Under the pieces are notes generated by a model. That model searched no databases, was not told the DNA's origin, and was given only the letters and a program-made list of their open reading frames with translations. DNA of 64,000 nucleotides. It comes from Spirochaetia bacterium (GTDB lineage: Bacteria > Spirochaetota > Spirochaetia > DSM-16054 > Sediminispirochaetaceae). The position numbers were made by a program, and so were the translations under genes. Of the stretch, positions 14,527 through 62,326 are shown in pieces (position 1 is the stretch's first letter; each line of letters opens with the position of its first letter). The stretch spans positions 512,001-576,000 of the forward strand of contig JAXHMY010000003.1 of NCBI GenBank assembly GCA_034520965.1, given 5' to 3'.

Positions 14527-15465
14527 CTATCTCATACCGGGATTAACGTCAAAGCCAATCTCACGATAGTAACGCAGCGCACCGGGATGAAGGCGGGCTT
14601 TCATGGAGTTGACATCCTGCATATTGATAAGCTTCATCGCCGGATGAGTCCCTTCCCATTCTGAACGGTTTTCCCAAAACGCTTTAGTCAGCTTATACGC
14701 AGTATCCTCGGAGAGGTTTTTCGTGCTGTAAAGAGCCACCGGCAAACTAATAGTATCCACATCTTGATCCACACCCTTATATAGACCGGCAGGAATAACT
14801 GTGCGGGTGTACTGGTCACTCACCTTTGCGAAGTCGGCATCGGAAAGCTCGAGGATTCGTACATCTATGGTAGAAGCAATCTCTTGTACCATCGAAGCCG
14901 GAGGTGTGCTGGAAGTTCCAAATCCTACTGCTCGACGGTTACGCACGGCTCGTACTCCTTCACTCAAGTCCACGGTCAGCAGATTAATATCATCGTAAAT
15001 CCCTTTGGATTCCAACACCGCCCGAGTAATACGCTCACCAGCCGAGCCGGCGCCGCCGGGAATAAATCGCTTCCCCGCCAGATCCTCTAAGCTCTCTACC
15101 CCGCTGTCTTTGCGAACAACCCAGTGCATTACCAATCCTGGAATTGGCCATAGGGAGCGAATATTTTCGTAACCACCCTCACTGAACTGTCCTCCTGCGT
15201 TTATCGCTTCCTGCACCAAGGAAGGCGGCGAGGTAAACAGAAAATTCTGTCGTACCCGTGCCATCTTGACGTTTTCCACCGATCCGGCACTTGTTTCAAC
15301 TGTAACATTCGAGTCTGAAGCATGTTTGTTCAATGTTTCAGCTATACCCACCGCAAAGGCGTAGTAAGTTGAAGTCTGACGGGCACTCTTTAAGCTCAGA
15401 TTTTCGGCAAAAAGCGTACCTGTAGATAGAAACACGATAAGTAAAAAAATTGCTGCTCTTTTCAT
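14527..15465 (-). CDS. TAXI family TRAP transporter solute-binding subunit
   Basis: Signal peptide, TSAGSVEN, GGAGS, LHPGALRYYRE motifs; adjacent to the fused permease. Confidence 0.9.
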   Translation of the reverse strand: MKRAAIFLLIVFLSTGTLFAENLSLKSARQTSTYYAFAVGIAETLNKHASDSNVTVETSAGSVENVKMARVRQNFLFTSPPSLVQEAINAGGQFSEGGYENIRSLWPIPGLVMHWVVRKDSGVESLEDLAGKRFIPGGAGSAGERITRAVLESKGIYDDINLLTVDLSEGVRAVRNRRAVGFGTSSTPPASMVQEIASTIDVRILELSDADFAKVSDQYTRTVIPAGLYKGVDQDVDTISLPVALYSTKNLSEDTAYKLTKAFWENRSEWEGTHPAMKLINMQDVNSMKARLHPGALRYYREIGFDVNPGMR

Positions 15466-33327: not shown

Positions 33328-34902
33328 ATGGGTCTTAAGTATGAAAATTTGGATGCAACCGAGAGTTTTTCAGTATTAAATAAACTCCCGGTGCCTTCGC
33401 TGCGCGAGGTTCTTACCACTGAGCGTGTTTCCGCGTGTACCATACCGGTCGGCGGTGGACTGTCTTTCAACTATGCCGCACTTCCGGTGGATAAAAAGAT
33501 ATCCGCCGCCCTGGCCGAACTTGCCGATGAGCAGCAGCTTATCGACAAATACCGAGCCCTGCTTGATGGTGAACGCATGAACACCGGTGAAAACCGGATG
33601 GTACTCCATCACCTGACGCGGGGTCAGCTTGGAAATGCCGTTGAAGAAAATGGTCATAACTTTAGAGCTTTTTATGAAACCCAACTGGAGCGTATATCGG
33701 CCTTCAGCAACAAGGTTCATGAAGGGACCATTAAAGGCTCAACGGGAAAGAACTTTACCACCGTTGTGCAAATCGGCATCGGCGGTTCTGATTTGGGGCC
33801 AAGGGCTCTCTACCTGGCCTTAAAGGGGTACTACTCTCAAGCCAAATTAGAGGCCCGCTTTATCTCTAATGTCGACCCCGATGATGCCGCAGCCGTACTC
33901 GATGGGCTTGACCTGGAAAGCACGCTTTTCATCCTGGTGTCCAAAAGCGGTACCACCCAAGAAACCCTGACAAACCAAAAGCTGGTACATAACTATATTT
34001 CTTCGCACGCCCCTAAAATTGATACACGTAGACATATGCTGGCGGTCACCAGTGCTGCCAGCCCATTGGCCGATTCCGAGGACTTTCTTGATAGCTTTTA
34101 CATCGATGATTACATTGGCGGTCGCTATAGCTCCACCAGTGCAGTCGGGGCGACAGTCCTTTCCCTGGCCTTTGGAGGGGATGAGTTTGCACGTGTACTC
34201 AGAGGAGCCCACGATGCCGACCGCCATGCCCTGGAACCATCCTTCTACGACAATGCTGCCTTAGCCGATGCACTCATGGGAGTATACATGGGCAATATCT
34301 TGAAATATCGGGTCAGTGCGGTGTTGCCCTACTCCCAGGCTCTGGGACGCTTCCCGGCTCATCTGCAGCAGCTGGATATGGAAAGTAATGGGAAACAAGT
34401 AAGCCGCAGTGAAGTGCCTTTAGCTTATCACACCGGCCCGGTTATTTTTGGGGAGCCGGGAACCAATGGTCAGCACTCTTTCTATCAACTACTGCATCAG
34501 GGAACCGAACAGATTAATTTACAGTTCATTGGCTTCCTGAAAAACCAGCGCGACCTGGATTCAGTACAAGACGGTTTCAGCAGCCGCCAAAAGCTTAATG
34601 CAAATTTAGCGGCTCAAATTGTTGCCTTTGCAAAGGGCAAGCAAGATGAAAAGCCTAACAAATCCTTTCCCGGCAACCGCCCCTCCAGCCTGCTGTATGG
34701 GAACGAACTTACGCCCGAATCCCTTGGAGCTTTACTGGCCCATTTTGAGAACAAAGTAATGTTTCAGGGTTTCACCTGGAATATAAACTCTTTTGATCAG
34801 GAAGGAGTTCAGCTGGGAAAACTGCTTACCAAGGAAGTTCTTGGCGGCGAACCGCAGGATGCCGGTTTGAGCGCATACGCCCGTTTGCTGGGAGTTCTCT
34901 GA
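33328..34902 (+). CDS. pgi: Glucose-6-phosphate isomerase
   Basis: IGIGGSDLGP, SKSGTTQET, GGRYS, QQLDMESNGK, GTNGQHSFYQ, FDQEGVQLGK. Confidence 0.96.
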   Translation: MGLKYENLDATESFSVLNKLPVPSLREVLTTERVSACTIPVGGGLSFNYAALPVDKKISAALAELADEQQLIDKYRALLDGERMNTGENRMVLHHLTRGQLGNAVEENGHNFRAFYETQLERISAFSNKVHEGTIKGSTGKNFTTVVQIGIGGSDLGPRALYLALKGYYSQAKLEARFISNVDPDDAAAVLDGLDLESTLFILVSKSGTTQETLTNQKLVHNYISSHAPKIDTRRHMLAVTSAASPLADSEDFLDSFYIDDYIGGRYSSTSAVGATVLSLAFGGDEFARVLRGAHDADRHALEPSFYDNAALADALMGVYMGNILKYRVSAVLPYSQALGRFPAHLQQLDMESNGKQVSRSEVPLAYHTGPVIFGEPGTNGQHSFYQLLHQGTEQINLQFIGFLKNQRDLDSVQDGFSSRQKLNANLAAQIVAFAKGKQDEKPNKSFPGNRPSSLLYGNELTPESLGALLAHFENKVMFQGFTWNINSFDQEGVQLGKLLTKEVLGGEPQDAGLSAYARLLGVL

Positions 34903-34943
34903 AAAGCTCCACTGTAATCCTCATTTCGCACTTATATCAAATC

Positions 34944-35011
34944 AGTTTCGCATACCGCTTCGCGGCAACCGAAACGACGAAAATAGCTGGATACGGCTAT
35001 TTTCTAAATAG
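34944..35011 (+). repeat. 68-bp two-hairpin REP-like repeat, copy A
   Basis: 60/68 identical to the reverse complement of 36802-36869. Confidence 0.8.
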
Positions 35012-35016
35012 AATAC

Positions 35017-35232
35017 ACAAAAAAGGGCTGCCGAAAAACTTCCGGCAGCCCTTAAAAATGAAAAGCACTTAAAAAGAACCCTCAGGGAAAAGGAGGTACA
35101 AAACCCTGAGGGATAACAAAAAAAGGAGGTCGATGAAAAAGTTTCCATGCTCTTCAATGAAAAAACCATTCTGGCTGGATATGGTTACATAGAAACAAAT
35201 AATTTATGGAAAAAACCATAAATTAATTATCT
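35017..35232 (-). ncRNA. Candidate small regulatory RNA (~215 nt) with anti-SD motifs
   Basis: Own promoter and U6 terminator, two further hairpins, ACCUCCUUUU twice, UUUUCAU three times; no convincing ORF on this strand. Confidence 0.65.
35019..35053 (-). terminator. Rho-independent terminator of the candidate sRNA
   Basis: AAGGGCUGCCG/CGGCAGCCCUU 11-bp stem running into U6. Confidence 0.8.
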
Positions 35233-35237
35233 CCAGT

Positions 35238-35266
35238 AACTTAATAAAAACGAAAAAAAATGTCAA
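35238..35266 (-). promoter_or_regulatory. Sigma70-type promoter of the candidate sRNA
   Basis: Minus strand TTGACA (35266-35261)-17 bp-TAAGTT (35243-35238), with an AT-rich upstream region. Confidence 0.65.
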
Positions 35267-35379
35267 TACTCAAATGTAATAATTTTCACATAAATATTAT
35301 ACACCCTAGAAATGAGACCAAATTTTTTAAATTTATTAATCTATTATAGCTTTTATTGCTATATTATTCACAAAAAATA

Positions 35380-36732
35380 TTATTTATCTTTAATGTACAC
35401 CTGGTTTTTCATACTCATCGGCTGGCGAGTATTTTCCAGCACGTCACGCCATAAACTGCCCTCAATATCGACATGCCGACGCTTAGAAACCGCAACCCGC
35501 ATTGGCACATGCACAAAATTGTCGTGGACCATACTAATAAGAGTTTTTGTTTTTCCCGCTACCGCCGCATGCACAGCATTTGCACCCAGTCGTGAACAGT
35601 AGATTGAATCGTTTGGATTTGCTGCAGCACTGCGAATCATATAGCTGGGATCAATATACTTGATATTTACTTCCATGCCGTCTTTTTCAAAAAACTCCTT
35701 GATTCTTCTTTTTAGTACTGAGCCAATGTCCTCTAGACTCTTATTTCCGGACAAATCGGTTTTGCCGGTTTCGCTGGTGAGTTTTTCCCCGGCCCCTTCG
35801 GCTACCAAAATAACCGCATGATTCCGGTCTGCAAGGCGACGTTTCAGGTGAACGAACAAACCATTCTCTCCATCTAAGTCAAAGGGACTCTCCGGGATGA
35901 GGCAAAAGTTTACATCGCTCATTGCCAAAGCCGTATGGGCTGCAATGAAACCGGACTCACGCCCCATCACTTTTACCAAACCAATGCCGTTTATGGTATC
36001 GTGAGCCTCGGTATGAGCTGCAGAAACAGCTTTTACAGCCTCAGTAACCGCCGTGTCAAATCCAAATGACCGCTGAATAAAACTGAGGTCATTATCAATA
36101 GTTTTGGGTATACCGATAATGGAAATCTTAAGGTTGCGCCGTTCAAGCTCTTCCGCTACCTCTAAAGCTCCGCGCTGAGTGCCGTCACCACCAACGGTAA
36201 ACAGCATACTAATATTCATACGCTCGATTGCATCTGCAATCTCTTCAACTCGATTTCCGCCGCCCCGTGCCGACTTTAAAATCGTTCCCCCCTTGGTTTG
36301 AATATCATCAACAATCTCCGGGTCCAATTCCAAGGGCGCAAAACCGGTTTCCGGGAGAAAACCCCGATACCCATTCTGAATGCCGGTGATTCTTGTAATA
36401 TTATATCGATACCACAAACAGCGTACTACTGCTCTAATAACATTGTTTAGGCCGGGGCAGAGCCCCCCGCAGGTGACAATCGCTGCATGTACATGCTTTG
36501 GGTTGAAGTAAATCTTCTCGCGGGGACCGGCCTTTTCCAGCAGCTCATGTGGGTCAAAACATACCTGCTGATGATCCTCCACGACCCCTTCGATATGATA
36601 AAGGATCTTTTCCTCATCATTTACGTAATTGGCAACCATATCTCCATCTTCGGTCGACATAATTATTGGTGATGTAATTTTTCGTTTGCCTAAGGCTGGA
36701 ACGCTATAATCTTTTGCTTTAGTATCCGACAT
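35380..36732 (-). CDS. pfkA: 6-phosphofructokinase (ATP-dependent, plant/spirochaete type)
   Basis: VTCGGLCPG, GGDGT, PKTIDND, MGRESG, VAEG, IDPSY. Confidence 0.9.
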   Translation of the reverse strand: MSDTKAKDYSVPALGKRKITSPIIMSTEDGDMVANYVNDEEKILYHIEGVVEDHQQVCFDPHELLEKAGPREKIYFNPKHVHAAIVTCGGLCPGLNNVIRAVVRCLWYRYNITRITGIQNGYRGFLPETGFAPLELDPEIVDDIQTKGGTILKSARGGGNRVEEIADAIERMNISMLFTVGGDGTQRGALEVAEELERRNLKISIIGIPKTIDNDLSFIQRSFGFDTAVTEAVKAVSAAHTEAHDTINGIGLVKVMGRESGFIAAHTALAMSDVNFCLIPESPFDLDGENGLFVHLKRRLADRNHAVILVAEGAGEKLTSETGKTDLSGNKSLEDIGSVLKRRIKEFFEKDGMEVNIKYIDPSYMIRSAAANPNDSIYCSRLGANAVHAAVAGKTKTLISMVHDNFVHVPMRVAVSKRRHVDIEGSLWRDVLENTRQPMSMKNQVYIKDK

Positions 36733-40558: not shown

Positions 40559-42502
40559 ATGCTTACAGAGTCAGTACAACTTTTCAATACAATCTATATG
40601 TTCACGCCGGCAGCCATTGGCCCGTTTCTTTCCCTTCTAGGGGTAATTATTATTGCCGCGGCAATCTACAACTCCCTTTTGCTGTTCTGGGAGTTCTCAA
40701 CTTTCTTTTTAGAAATGAACGCTTCTCCGGCTGCCGAACGCATCATCCATGCTATGCCGGATCCCCTGCTGGTATGTGACCGCAACAGCACCATCAAAGT
40801 CATCAATAACGCCTTTACTGAAGTGTTCGGCTATGAACACAGCGAGCTGATCAACAAAAACTTACAAGACTGCTCCAACTACACACGTTTGCTCTCACTT
40901 ATCGAATTGCTGGGCACAGAGAACAGCGCTTCAATCGAAACGAGTTTATACGACCGCGAGAACTATCTGTTTCCTGCTCAGGTTTCAGCCTCTCACCTTT
41001 TTAACAGGGATAACACTGTTTCCGGCACTATCTTTGTTATACAAGATGTACGGGAATACCGAAAGGTTATGAATGAAATCGAGGATCTATTTCATAAAAC
41101 TGAGGAGCAGGTGGAACAGCGTACTCAAGAACTCCAGCAGGCCAACTACGCTCTTAAAGATGAGATTCAGCGGCGCAAAGAAATTGAAGGACAACTGCGG
41201 CACACCGCTTTTCACGATTCTTTAACCGGCTTGCCCAATCGTGAACTCTTTTCCGAGTATCTTCAGCACTCGTTTAACAAATATAAACATCGCGGTGGTA
41301 TGACCTTCGCAATACTCTTTATTGACCTCGACCACTTTAAGTTTGTGAATGATACGTACGGTCATACCTGCTGGCGATTTTGTTCTAAAGCAAAGCGCCT
41401 TCCGTTTACATGAATGTTTACGCGATGTAGATACGGTAGGCCGTATAGGCGGGGATGAATTTGTGGTACTGATGGATGAAATCAGCGAGCCCTCCCAGAC
41501 AATTAAGGTGGCCGAACGGATATTAGATGCTATGCAGGAGGAAATTAACTTCAACGGCACTAAGATACGGATAGGAAGCAGTATCGGAATTTGTTTTGCC
41601 GAACAGAGACATGAGGCCCCGAAAGAGATAATTCGTGATGCAGATATTGCCCTATATCACGCGAAACAGCAGGGGCGACACCGGCACTCGCATCTTTCAG
41701 GGAGAACTGCAGGAGAAGGCTATTCGTCATATGAAAATCGAGCAGGAACTACGCGAGACGGGTTCATCAGAGCGGCTTTGATATACAGTATCAGCCAATA
41801 GTAGAACTCTCGGAGGGTACGCTTAAGGGATTCGAAGCCCTCATACGCTGGAACTCTGCAGAACTGGGTCAAATAAGCCCGGAAACATTTATACCGATTG
41901 CAGAAGAGAGCGAACTAATATATGAAATCGGACGATGGGTACTCTTCCGAGCCTGCAACGATATGAGTAATTGGCTTCAGCATATTCCGTCACACCTCAA
42001 GCACATTACCATAAGCGTAAATGTATCTCCACGCCAGCTTCAATCCTCCGTACTGCTGCAGGATATCGAGAATGCTCTTGCAGAGAGCATGCTGCCTCCG
42101 GAGAACTTGGTAGTCGAAGTTACCGAAAGTGCAATTATTACAGACAGCAAAGGCGCGCTGGCAACCCTCAATCAGTTGAAAGAAATGGGTGTAAAGCTCC
42201 ATTTGGATGATTTCGGTGAAGGCTATTCTTCACTTAACCTTCTGTACCGTTTTCCCTTCGATACCATGAAAATCGATCGTTCCTACGTGAGCGGGCTTCA
42301 AAATAACCATGACAACAGCGAAGTTGTTCGAACCATCATCAACCTTGGTCACTCAATGAAAAAAGAAGTCATCGCCGAAGGCATAGAAACCTCGAATGAG
42401 GCAACTGCTCTGCGAAATTTCAAATGTGAACTGGGGCAGGGTTTTTTCTTCTCCAGACCTCTTGACGAGGATATGGCACGCTTGTTTATAGATTCGACAT
42501 GA
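40559..42502 (+). pseudogene. PAS-GGDEF-EAL c-di-GMP signalling protein, frameshifted
   Basis: PAS, HDSLTGLPNR, GGDEF, GFEALIRW, DDFGEGYSSL, KIDRS, IAEGIE across frames. Confidence 0.85.
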
Positions 42503-48909: not shown

Positions 48910-50238
48910 TTATCTACTTACAATTCCATTCTGTATCGCAATTGCCTGGGCTGCGTTGGCAGCTTGCTCAGGATTGCGGTTATTCAGGAACATTTCCATA
49001 ACAGTAGCAAAGTCATTCATAAAACCTTCATTTGCGGTTACCCCGTGAGCGAGGCTACCTACAATTCGGTTATCAGCAAAGTCTTTTGCTGCAGATTGTG
49101 AATAGTCGTTGTATTTGCTCAGGTCAGAGTCTGTACGGGAAGAAATAGAGCCCTTCAGAGGATTGAAAGTGTCCTGGCCTTCCAAGGAACCACAGGTTTT
49201 GAGCCATGCCAAGGCAGCGGCAGGGTTCTTGACACCCTTCGGAAAACCAAAGCTGTCGGCCAAGAACATAAAAGCCCCTTCGGTTCCCGGTGAAGCTGCC
49301 CAACTATAGTCGCTTCCAGGTTCAAGATTAAGGGTGGTGCTCATGTATCCTGCAGCCCAGTCGCCCATAATGTTAAACGCGGCATCGCCGCCAACGACCA
49401 GGTCGGTAGCCTGCTGCCAGCTTAAGGAAGAGAAATCGTCGTTGGTGTACTCTAGAACTTCATCCAGAGTCGCCCACACTTCAACTGCTTCTTCGCTGGT
49501 CCAGCTCAGTTCACCGTTCCACAGTCCATCGTATTTATCCGCACCAAGCACACCCAGGGCAACCGATTCCCACAGGTGGTTTACAGTCCAGTTAGTAGCC
49601 AACGAAAGAGGCACAACCCCTTCTGCTTCCAGGTCGTCTGCAATTTCCAGGAACTCATCCCAAGACTGCGGAACTTCTACTCCCCATTTGTCTAGGTTCT
49701 CCGGAATATACCACATGACGTTGGAACGGTGTATATTTACCGGCACCGACCAAATACCGTTTTCGGTACCGATCAGATTGATCAGGTCTTCAGGAATAAC
49801 ATCCATCCAGCCTTCGGATTCGAAGAGGGGAGTAAGATCCAGCATTCTCTCGGCTGCCACCCAAGTACCGATTAGCTCTTGTCCGGCATGAACCTGAAAA
49901 GAGTCGGGCGGGTCGCCACCAAGCATTCTGGTTTTCAGAACTGCCTTTGCATTTACACCGGAACCGCCGGTTACAGTAGCGTTGATTACTTCAACCTGGG
50001 GATAATTATCATTATACAGGTCGATCAGTGCATTAAGCGCGGGGGCTTCATCGCCTGCCCACCAGGAAAAAAGTTCCAAATCGCCGCTCGGTTTTCCGTA
50101 ATCCAATTTAACTTCCGGAACCTCTGCAGTCTCGGTTTCTTCCGCAGCAGCGGCGCCTTCCTGCTGTCCACCGGCCCATACGGACACCATCGGCAGTAAC
50201 AGCAGTAGTGTGATCATCAGGGTTAGTCCCTTTTTCAT
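48910..50238 (-). CDS. Carbohydrate ABC solute-binding protein (glucose/mannose GtsA-like)
   Basis: [38 protein letters not shown]; strong AAGGAGG RBS. Confidence 0.9.
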
Positions 50239-61048: not shown

Positions 61049-62326
61049 TTAGTCGTTGGCCTCTTCCAGCATTTCTACAAACTCTTCTGGAGTGGCTCGT
61101 CCGAGAGCCAGCTGGTCCAATGCAGCTCCAAACTCCTGGACTACAGAAGCAGAGAACTTACCGGAGAGGTGGCTGACTACAAATGACGCATTTTCCTGTG
61201 CTTCTACAAATTTCTTCTGAAGCGGATCAACATCGTCGCTTGCGTCAAAGGTAAATTTCGGTACCATTAAAGCACCGGAGTCCATCGAAATGCGCTTTAC
61301 GTTTTCTGGCTCACTCATGTACTGCAGGAAGGTTAAAGCAGCTTCACGTTTGGCAGGATCGTCGGTTGCGCCGGACGCCAACACCGTCTGGATAAACCCT
61401 ACCTGCGCACCCTGTTCGCCGCCGGCGGCTGCCGGAGCTGAAGCTTAGTTCTGTAGCTTCATAAACCTCAGGGGCATTCTCACGGATATTACCGATAAAC
61501 CATGGACCATTAACGAACACTGCGGTTCTCTCAGCCAGAAAGTGGCCGGAAGGAACTGAAGGACCGCCGCCGATGGCGTCTTTAGTGGTATTTCCATCTG
61601 AATACAGCTGTTTCAGGATCTCGGCACCCTTTACATACGCAGGATCCGAGAGAGGCTTGTCCCATACGTCCGCGGGCCGCCGACACTGGCCATGATGTGG
61701 GAGTACCACAGCATACTTGTCCATGCATTGGCTCCGCCGGTCATTTGAGAGGTCGGGGTCACATCGATAGCTTTTAACTTCTCGGCTGCCTCCCAAAACT
61801 CATCGTAGGTCTTTGGAAAACCGTCAATACCGGCTTCTGCAAACAGGTCGGCATTGTACCAGATGGGGGTAATTGCCATTTCGTAAGGAATTACCTTGGT
61901 CTGACCGTCGAGGGTGACTTCATTTACGATACTGGAGTCAAACCGGTTGCCCCAGCCGCCTGCCAGATCTTCGGAAAAATCTACCAGAATATCTCCGGAA
62001 TAGAAATCCTTCGTATCGGGGTTCCACTTCAGAGTAAAAATGTCGGGCACCTGACCACCGGAAATCTGGGCAAGAATTTTCTTGTCGTAGATATCGTAGT
62101 CAGGCATCTCTTCGATTTGAACCTTAATCTGTCCGGCATGCTTCTCATTGAACTCGGCAACAATGTCGGCTACCGCGTCCGCTTTTGCATCTTCACCTAC
62201 CCAAATACAGGGCCAGTTCAGAACTACCTCTTTTTGTGCTTCCTGTTGTCCACCTGCAAGCACCGGCATAGCCAGTACGGTAAATAGAGCAATCAGCATA
62301 ATTGAAAAAACAGTAATTTTTTTCAT
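61049..62326 (-). pseudogene. Carbohydrate ABC solute-binding protein, frameshifted
   Basis: MKK...LAGGQQE leader, VPDIF, IWYNADLF, NGPWF. Confidence 0.85.

Follow-up and report, generated by a model that had tools for sequence, protein, structure and literature searches.

Position and anatomy of the unit

The question raised by this locus is whether the interval between pfkA (35380..36732, minus strand) and pgi (33328..34902, plus strand) contains an independent RNA gene and, if so, what would transcribe it and upon what it would act. All coordinates without a contig refer to the window, that is, the whole stretch of 64,000 nt that was analysed. An earlier note on this DNA had proposed an independently promoted, minus-strand non-coding RNA of ~215 nt, driven by a sigma70-type promoter and carrying exposed anti-Shine-Dalgarno (anti-SD) motifs, which would repress mRNAs of solute-binding proteins (SBPs). 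The unit has pfkA upstream on the same strand and pgi as its convergent neighbour.

Direct reading of the window recovered every motif, hairpin, promoter box and terminator on which that proposal was built. On the minus strand, a sigma70-type promoter (35238..35266; TTGACA at 35266-35261, N17, TAAGTT at 35243-35238) precedes a 10-bp 5′ hairpin (35200..35225), a first seed UUUUUCAU-CG-ACCUCCUUUUUUU (35118..35140, with ACCUCCUUUUUUU at 35130-35118) that joins an anti-start-codon to an anti-SD sequence, and a terminator, T1 (35071..35112). The 9-bp covarying stem of T1 (35112-35104/35087-35079) closes a 16-nt loop, UUUUGUACCUCCUUUU, which contains ACCUCCUUUU and constitutes the second seed, and is followed by the U-tract UUCUUUUU. 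A second terminator, T2 (35017..35053; stem 35053-35023 plus U6), comes next and is missing from some family members, and upstream of the sigma70 promoter lies a palindrome-like TGTGA-N6-TTACA (35274..35289), a putative CRP/FNR-like site by its resemblance. Two features had gone unlisted in the earlier note, namely the U-tract of the 9-bp hairpin and an ECF-type promoter, TGTAACC-N14-TGGTTT (35163..35189), which precedes the first CCUCC by ~60 nt.

The unit is real, but its conserved part is a shorter RNA of ~87-88 nt (35071..35158, minus strand), a predicted ECF transcript whose 5′ end would fall at 35158-35155. For 63 loci with the ECF-type promoter, predicted RNA lengths are 77-115 nt, with a median of 91. 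The three UUUUCAU motifs described previously are likewise all present (35157, 35133 and 35058), but only that at 35133 is conserved; the 35157 copy shares bases with the ECF −10/start site, and that at 35058 lies past the first terminator. The window has a single tandem ACCTCCTTTT pair, an arrangement seen in 0/100 shuffles, and the fold z-scores are −6.84 for the 216-nt unit and −2.28 for the 88-nt core.

Distribution of the RNA and covariation of its terminator

BLASTN recovered the core from 16/16 family genomes, and many further families of the class have it too; of the spirochaete families covered by the searches, most carry the RNA. A covariance model built from 38 rows, the promoter not being included, matches 100 of 151 Spirochaetia genomes at E≤0.01, the genome of origin among them. 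A sample of the phylum gave matches in 18 of 151 genomes, those outside the class occurring only in families f54 (9/14) and f64 (1/3). Searched against 185,579 species genomes, an exact IUPAC pattern of the core gave 93 matches, of which 80 were listed; the titles of these 80 are all spirochaetal, including Sediminispirochaeta, Sphaerochaeta, Pleomorphochaeta and Thalassospirochaeta, and viral contigs have 0 matches to the pattern. One genome of 1.1 Mb and 99% completeness (G254) has no match at E≤5. Weak matches in G100, G141 and G269, which lack the promoter, were excluded from the counts, and the weak match in G032 (E=0.024) has it. Where enough flank was available, pfkA lies upstream in 63/87 homologous loci and pgi downstream in 43/79. 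To our knowledge, conservation throughout a bacterial class is rare among sRNA families.

Conservation extends from ~35158 through the 9-bp hairpin. In a 15-row family alignment, the 10-bp 5′ hairpin (alignable in 7/15 rows, closest relatives only) and T2 proved to be local features. No element varies less than the loop of the terminator, UUU(N)CCUCCUUU, which is retained when the 5′ part changes. When 110 loci were reduced to 88 by removing identical copies and loci failing the core expression, a U-run followed the stem in 87/88 and an A-run preceded it in 0/88, so the 9-bp hairpin is to be read as a terminator on the minus strand. Two-sided changes affect 7/10 stem pairs, more than in any of 500 shuffles or of the slid controls, a figure that is overstated because the pattern search preselected paired-looking stems and the kin are related rather than independent.

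Variants of the arrangement were also observed. Two CCUCC-loop hairpins stand in tandem in the relatives L269, L277, L288 and L309, and two or three separate copies per genome are represented by L259, L294 and L301-L303. The loci L319-L331, mostly of family f54 outside the class, are short, share the terminator loop UUUUCCUCCUUU and for the most part lack the ECF motif. The CCUCC terminator-loop module may be older, judging by its occurrence, than the link to the ECF promoter.

A comparison with Rfam 15, as had been suggested, returned no family at its gathering threshold across 34500-35800, the best sub-threshold scores being 23.3 of 97 (AaHKsRNA41), 22.4 of 40 (ar15) and 20.9 of 110 (LhrC). 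TD-1/TD-2 motifs have been described from Treponema denticola. In a scan of 8 homologous loci they were the only Rfam matches, away from the RNA, at L253:1624-1788 (genus g37), ~550 nt from the sRNA homologue. No description of this RNA was found in the open-access PMC and bioRxiv literature.

With regard to coding potential, the plus-strand ORFs of the relatives measure 3-55 codons and share no frame, the ATG itself being absent from many loci. Amongst specific candidates, the 19-codon plus-strand ORF keeps neither frame nor length, and a 75-codon minus-strand ORF across the unit was rejected as U-run lengths differ among relatives. In relatives the core is covered by RNA-library contigs, from which neither strand nor ends nor level can be read; 8 of 9 metatranscriptome runs were examined, the runs having been found with this stretch and each with a small share. 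Taken together, conservation, promoter and structure support the minus-strand, independently promoted RNA with exposed anti-SD motifs that had been proposed, and the unit is almost certainly a genuine, conserved non-coding RNA gene.

Promoters of the RNA and the sigma factor gene

A weight matrix of the ECF-type promoter (43 sites), applied genome-wide, ranked this unit first, the start of an ECF sigma gene second and a sibling RNA third. The sigma gene (G000:C8:262130-262657, G000 being the genome of the window) is followed by a zf-HC2 anti-sigma gene whose product has a hydrophobic segment, and has orthologues in 53/60 relatives. Of these, 50 loci were retrieved and, with one at a contig edge, 49 scored. 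GTAAC precedes 49/49, the strict motif occurs before 46/49 compared with 16/2949 genes of the home genome, and at least 10 bits are reached by 41/49 against 0/49 reverse-strand controls. An in-frame start lies within ~9 nt of the −10 in 45/49, these mRNAs being apparently leaderless.

On the RNA side, the motif is present in 46/80 listed pattern loci, and it lies ≤150 nt upstream in 38/62 weaker or second model matches versus 9/1285 control windows. The remaining 34 of the 80 loci, mostly titled Sphaerochaeta/Sphaerochaetaceae, have TTGAT/TTGAC instead; the motif is also missing from most of 13 sampled matches (12 outside the class), and from the RNA locus of G027 (L044, L168), though the ECF gene there keeps its own. 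Across G017-G060, RNA matches occur in 32/39 genomes with the ECF gene and 0/5 without it, with the caveat that small genomes may lose both independently. As the GTAAC motif is common to the RNA and the ECF sigma gene, and the promoter of the RNA matches that of a sigma gene of autoregulated type, transcription of the RNA by the ECF sigma factor in this lineage appears likely, and we infer that this factor reads the shared TGTAACC-N14-TGGTTT motif.

By its position in the murB-cysS-sigma order, which resembles that of T. pallidum TP0090-TP0092, the sigma factor may be orthologous to TP0092. In an excerpt of PMC7309211, TP0092 is called the sole ECF sigma factor of T. pallidum. Excerpts of PMC7826278 state that ECFs usually autoregulate and give TGTAACCTT/GTTT as a predicted ECF promoter type. 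This is the predicted −35 and −10 of ECF231, which resembles the present case further in its zinc-finger, single-helix anti-sigma at +1; ECF231 is described, however, from Bacteroidetes and Acidobacteria, with a periplasmic HEAT repeat. The descriptions of ECF208, ECF229 and ECF252 do not give this motif.

The cluster at L150:1438-3051 (+), equivalent to G000:C8:262130-263743, comprises the ECF sigma, the zf-HC2 anti-sigma and a 165-aa exported protein, situated after cysS, and is followed by a TIG/transglutaminase-like protein. Elsewhere, at L183:232-999 (+) (G000:C3:130831-131598), the ECF motif stands 81 nt before the gene of a 228-aa secreted protein that matches no Pfam family and is a candidate member of the regulon.

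The sigma70 promoter went unflagged in a consensus promoter scan, its −10 matching 3 of 6 positions. In 15 loci of the family, conservation of TTGAC is 90% or higher, the −10 never varies in its TA and final T, and the promoter is kept across the family at variable distance. It is best read as a second input, and would give a 5′-extended form from ~35231.

The sibling RNA, at L182:465-570 (+) (G000:C1:476364-476471), has the same ECF promoter, an A-rich 5′ part and a CCUCC terminator loop, UUUCUCCUCCUUUU, and is kept, with changing stems, in 5/9 genus relatives. BLASTN found no second full copy and no cis-antisense elsewhere in the genome. The possibility that the unit belongs to a general terminator type or repeat was discarded, as the covariance model finds in this genome at E≤0.01, besides the unit, only the sibling.

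Exposure of the seeds and predicted pairing

The sequence ACCUCCUUU is identical to the 16S tail of this genome. Folding of the 63 ECF-type loci gives predicted unpaired values of 0.94 for the loop CCUCC, 0.66 for the first CCUCC and 0.38 for the UUUUCAU arm, which for the most part is predicted to pair with the purine-rich 5′ end. Single folds favour a weak 5′ hairpin (z<0 in 51/63, z<−1 in 19). A consensus form of this hairpin was dropped when RNAalifold gave 0 pairs over 32 rows, and it is regarded as weak and variable. CAU is kept in 47/66 ECF-type loci, of which only 16 have the perfect internal partner AUGAA; retention of CAU whilst its internal partner varies favours pairing with AUG. 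The UUUUCAU arm is missing from many distant homologues.

Duplex scans were run over 2949 genes from a home-made caller that scores SDs. The SBP set held 34 Pfam-located genes, of which the 28 with a recognisable N-terminus were retained; their mean of −16.0 kcal/mol compares with −11.8 for other genes (SD-matched p=0.002). The start regions quoted in the earlier note for its three named targets agree with the sequence, and their fates differ: the SBP gene at 50238 ranks 10/2949, but the SBP gene at 62326 and the TAXI receptor at 15465 rank only 380 and 608. Six close orthologues retain the 50238 site, which weakens in those more distant. Further candidates are FlaA (rank 103) and, at rank 24, what may be an outer-membrane protein, to judge by a weak OmpA-membrane match, and the start region of the sigma gene ranks 2681 of 2949. 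Several SBP genes of G000, including those at 61049-62326 and 40559-42502 of the window, are split by apparent frameshifts, which blurs gene-level counts and probably reflects assembly errors.

The top 200 duplex partners include 33 predicted secreted proteins, against 30 for a plain anti-SD control and a background of 9.5%; enrichment is not significant for the top 30, 60 or 100. Secreted products are predicted for 33/86 genes matching SD plus AUGAAA versus 125/718 matching the SD alone. Since signal peptides start with MK, a bias towards SBP and secreted proteins would arise for any anti-AUGAAA sequence, and thus the bias towards SBP starts does not identify true targets. The seed is generic. 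As for protein partners, Hfq and ProQ were each found in 0/17 family genomes, and a KhpA/B domain in 17/17.

Relationship to described sRNAs

AbcR, GcvB and cuckoo-type sRNAs, put forward previously as analogues, are not the best ones; Hfq was not found in the family genomes. AbcR sRNAs of Alphaproteobacteria display their anti-SD in a hairpin loop. The present RNA differs from AbcR/ar15 (RF02345) in its score, 22.4 bits against a gathering threshold of 40. It shares with Cuckoo/CcsR of Alphaproteobacteria, as excerpted from PMC4615179, the showing of an anti-SD in a hairpin loop; it has, however, one such loop, ACCUCCUUUU, in place of 2-4 adjacent hairpins with a loop CCUCCUCCC each. From both it is further set apart by the Hfq result for the 17 family genomes.

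Closer parallels come from Gram-positive bacteria and fusobacteria. LhrC1-5 of Listeria monocytogenes (RF00616) carry, according to the part of PMC4132741 drawn upon, a CU-rich motif both in a single strand and in the terminator loop, as does the RNA described here. They have three CUCCC...UUUU sites (loop A, single strand and terminator loop), whereas the spirochaete RNA has two CCUCC-UUUU sites, and they are LisRK-dependent, whereas it has an ECF-type promoter; its score for RF00616 is 20.9 bits against 110. Streptococcal csRNAs, in the excerpts drawn upon from PMC4507080 and PMC3091779, are 87-151 nt long, carry an anti-SD and an anti-AUG and have transporters among their targets. The spirochaete RNA similarly combines an anti-SD with an anti-start-codon in one stretch, mostly as CAU and also as anti-UUG variants; both parts of such a stretch are present, with CCUCC predicted to be mostly unpaired and UUUUCAU mostly within the weak hairpin. 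It differs from the csRNAs as excerpted in lacking the CiaR repeat TTTAAG-N5-TTTAAG (35400-35160, minus strand), in its extra anti-SD in the terminator loop and in matching no Rfam family. Features diagnostic of LhrC, csRNAs (the CiaR repeat), Cuckoo/CcsR and AbcR/ar15 were each sought in the spirochaete RNA, and none was found.

In Proteobacteria, sigmaE has a 'non-coding arm' of sRNAs of the MicA/RybB kind. FoxI of the Hfq-less Fusobacterium nucleatum is, as excerpted from PMC9546586, an 87-nt sigmaE-dependent sRNA; on mglB it pairs across the SD, and fomA is repressed by it. So far as these excerpts describe it, FoxI resembles the spirochaete RNA in size, in a promoter common with an autoregulated ECF, in the context of no Hfq being found and, by the predictions made here, in a pairing that spans the SD on mRNAs for envelope and binding proteins. 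FoxI, which was compared by its description, belongs to another phylum with no Rfam link to the present RNA, and the latter differs in having two anti-SD sites, of which one sits in the terminator loop, in a further promoter of sigma70 type and in a sigma mRNA that is apparently leaderless. By analogy, the spirochaete RNA likely works as FoxI does.

Proposed role and competing explanations

On balance, it is rather likely that the RNA is a repressor pairing with SD/AUG regions, with targets biased towards the envelope. An autoregulated ECF sigma factor would transcribe the ~87-nt RNA, presumably under envelope stress; the RNA would accumulate and then pair with mRNAs, its CCUCC seeds binding Shine-Dalgarno and start regions such that translation is repressed. 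One of the two seeds would act as a single strand flanked by an anti-AUG and the other from the terminator loop, and mRNAs of exported proteins are the predicted favoured targets. The sigma mRNA, appearing leaderless, would escape the anti-SD seed. The upstream sigma70 promoter and read-through from pfkA may supply basal, longer forms, and KhpA/B are candidate partners, no Hfq or ProQ having been found. The sigmaE-plus-sRNA architecture of Proteobacteria and Fusobacterium would thereby extend to Spirochaetia, and, with a promoter motif, RNA ends, a seed and a sibling all defined, the proposal can be tested at once in cultivated members. A bolder version, offered tentatively and rated as possible though somewhat doubtful, is that these RNAs are class-wide, Hfq-independent, ECF-driven mimics of the 16S tail that serve as a broad brake on SD-led translation, with a bias to MK-starting exported proteins and with the leaderless sigma mRNA escaping. 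If true, the sigmaE response of spirochaetes would gain its long-missing repressor arm, one wired by mode of translation initiation rather than by single targets.

The same invariance of the terminator loop, occasionally doubled as tandem hairpins, would also suit an ECF-driven RNA that acts on protein, its pyrimidine-rich loops resembling the 16S tail and titrating KhpA/B, a ribosomal protein or a nuclease of the 16S 3′ end. The identity of ACCUCCUUU with that tail, the KhpA/B domain throughout the family genomes and the lack of a sharp mRNA target in the duplex scan agree with such a role, which is nevertheless unlikely: a CAU 2-3 nt from CCUCC is conserved beyond the need of the internal hairpin, and RNAs of like anatomy described in the excerpted PMC4132741 and PMC4507080 pair with mRNAs. 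A base-pairing sRNA devoted mainly to carbon and transport control, through sigma70, the palindromic site and co-transcription with pfkA, and with the ECF promoter secondary, is similarly improbable. It would account for the frequent synteny with pfkA and pgi, for the SBP enrichment among pairing start regions and for a sigma70 promoter that is family-conserved and, in the listed pattern loci, apparently the sole one in Sphaerochaetaceae. The ECF motif is, however, retained when the neighbours change, the sibling RNA has it away from glycolytic genes, and the start regions of pgi and pfkA rank only 1100 and 579 of 2949, so that the link to glycolysis suggested in the earlier note comes down to synteny.

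Far less credible is the notion that there is no independent RNA here, only a conserved 3′ UTR or terminator of pfkA or the start of a small plus-strand ORF. A terminator scan flagged nothing between the pfkA stop and the sRNA, which implies that the pfkA transcript likely stops at T1 and T2 as well, and one RNA-library contig spans the unit into pfkA; the plus strand, for its part, reads as an SD plus ATG AAA. Yet where pfkA is absent the unit still has its own promoter, and termination needs no invariant loop letters, whilst just 2 nt separate AAGGAGGU from the ATG, and the plus-strand frames are, as noted above, unconserved and often without an ATG. For the preferred SD/AUG-pairing repressor, as for the pfkA mRNA, T2 likely backs up T1.

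Between pgi and T2 lies a ~70-bp, two-hairpin REP/MITE-like repeat (34944-35012, plus strand); a BLAST of the genome gives 47 rows for it, including several palindromic duplicates. Look-alikes with many different flanks have a high summed depth in RNA-library contigs, and at the place of the repeat the contig of a close relative carries 71 other letters.
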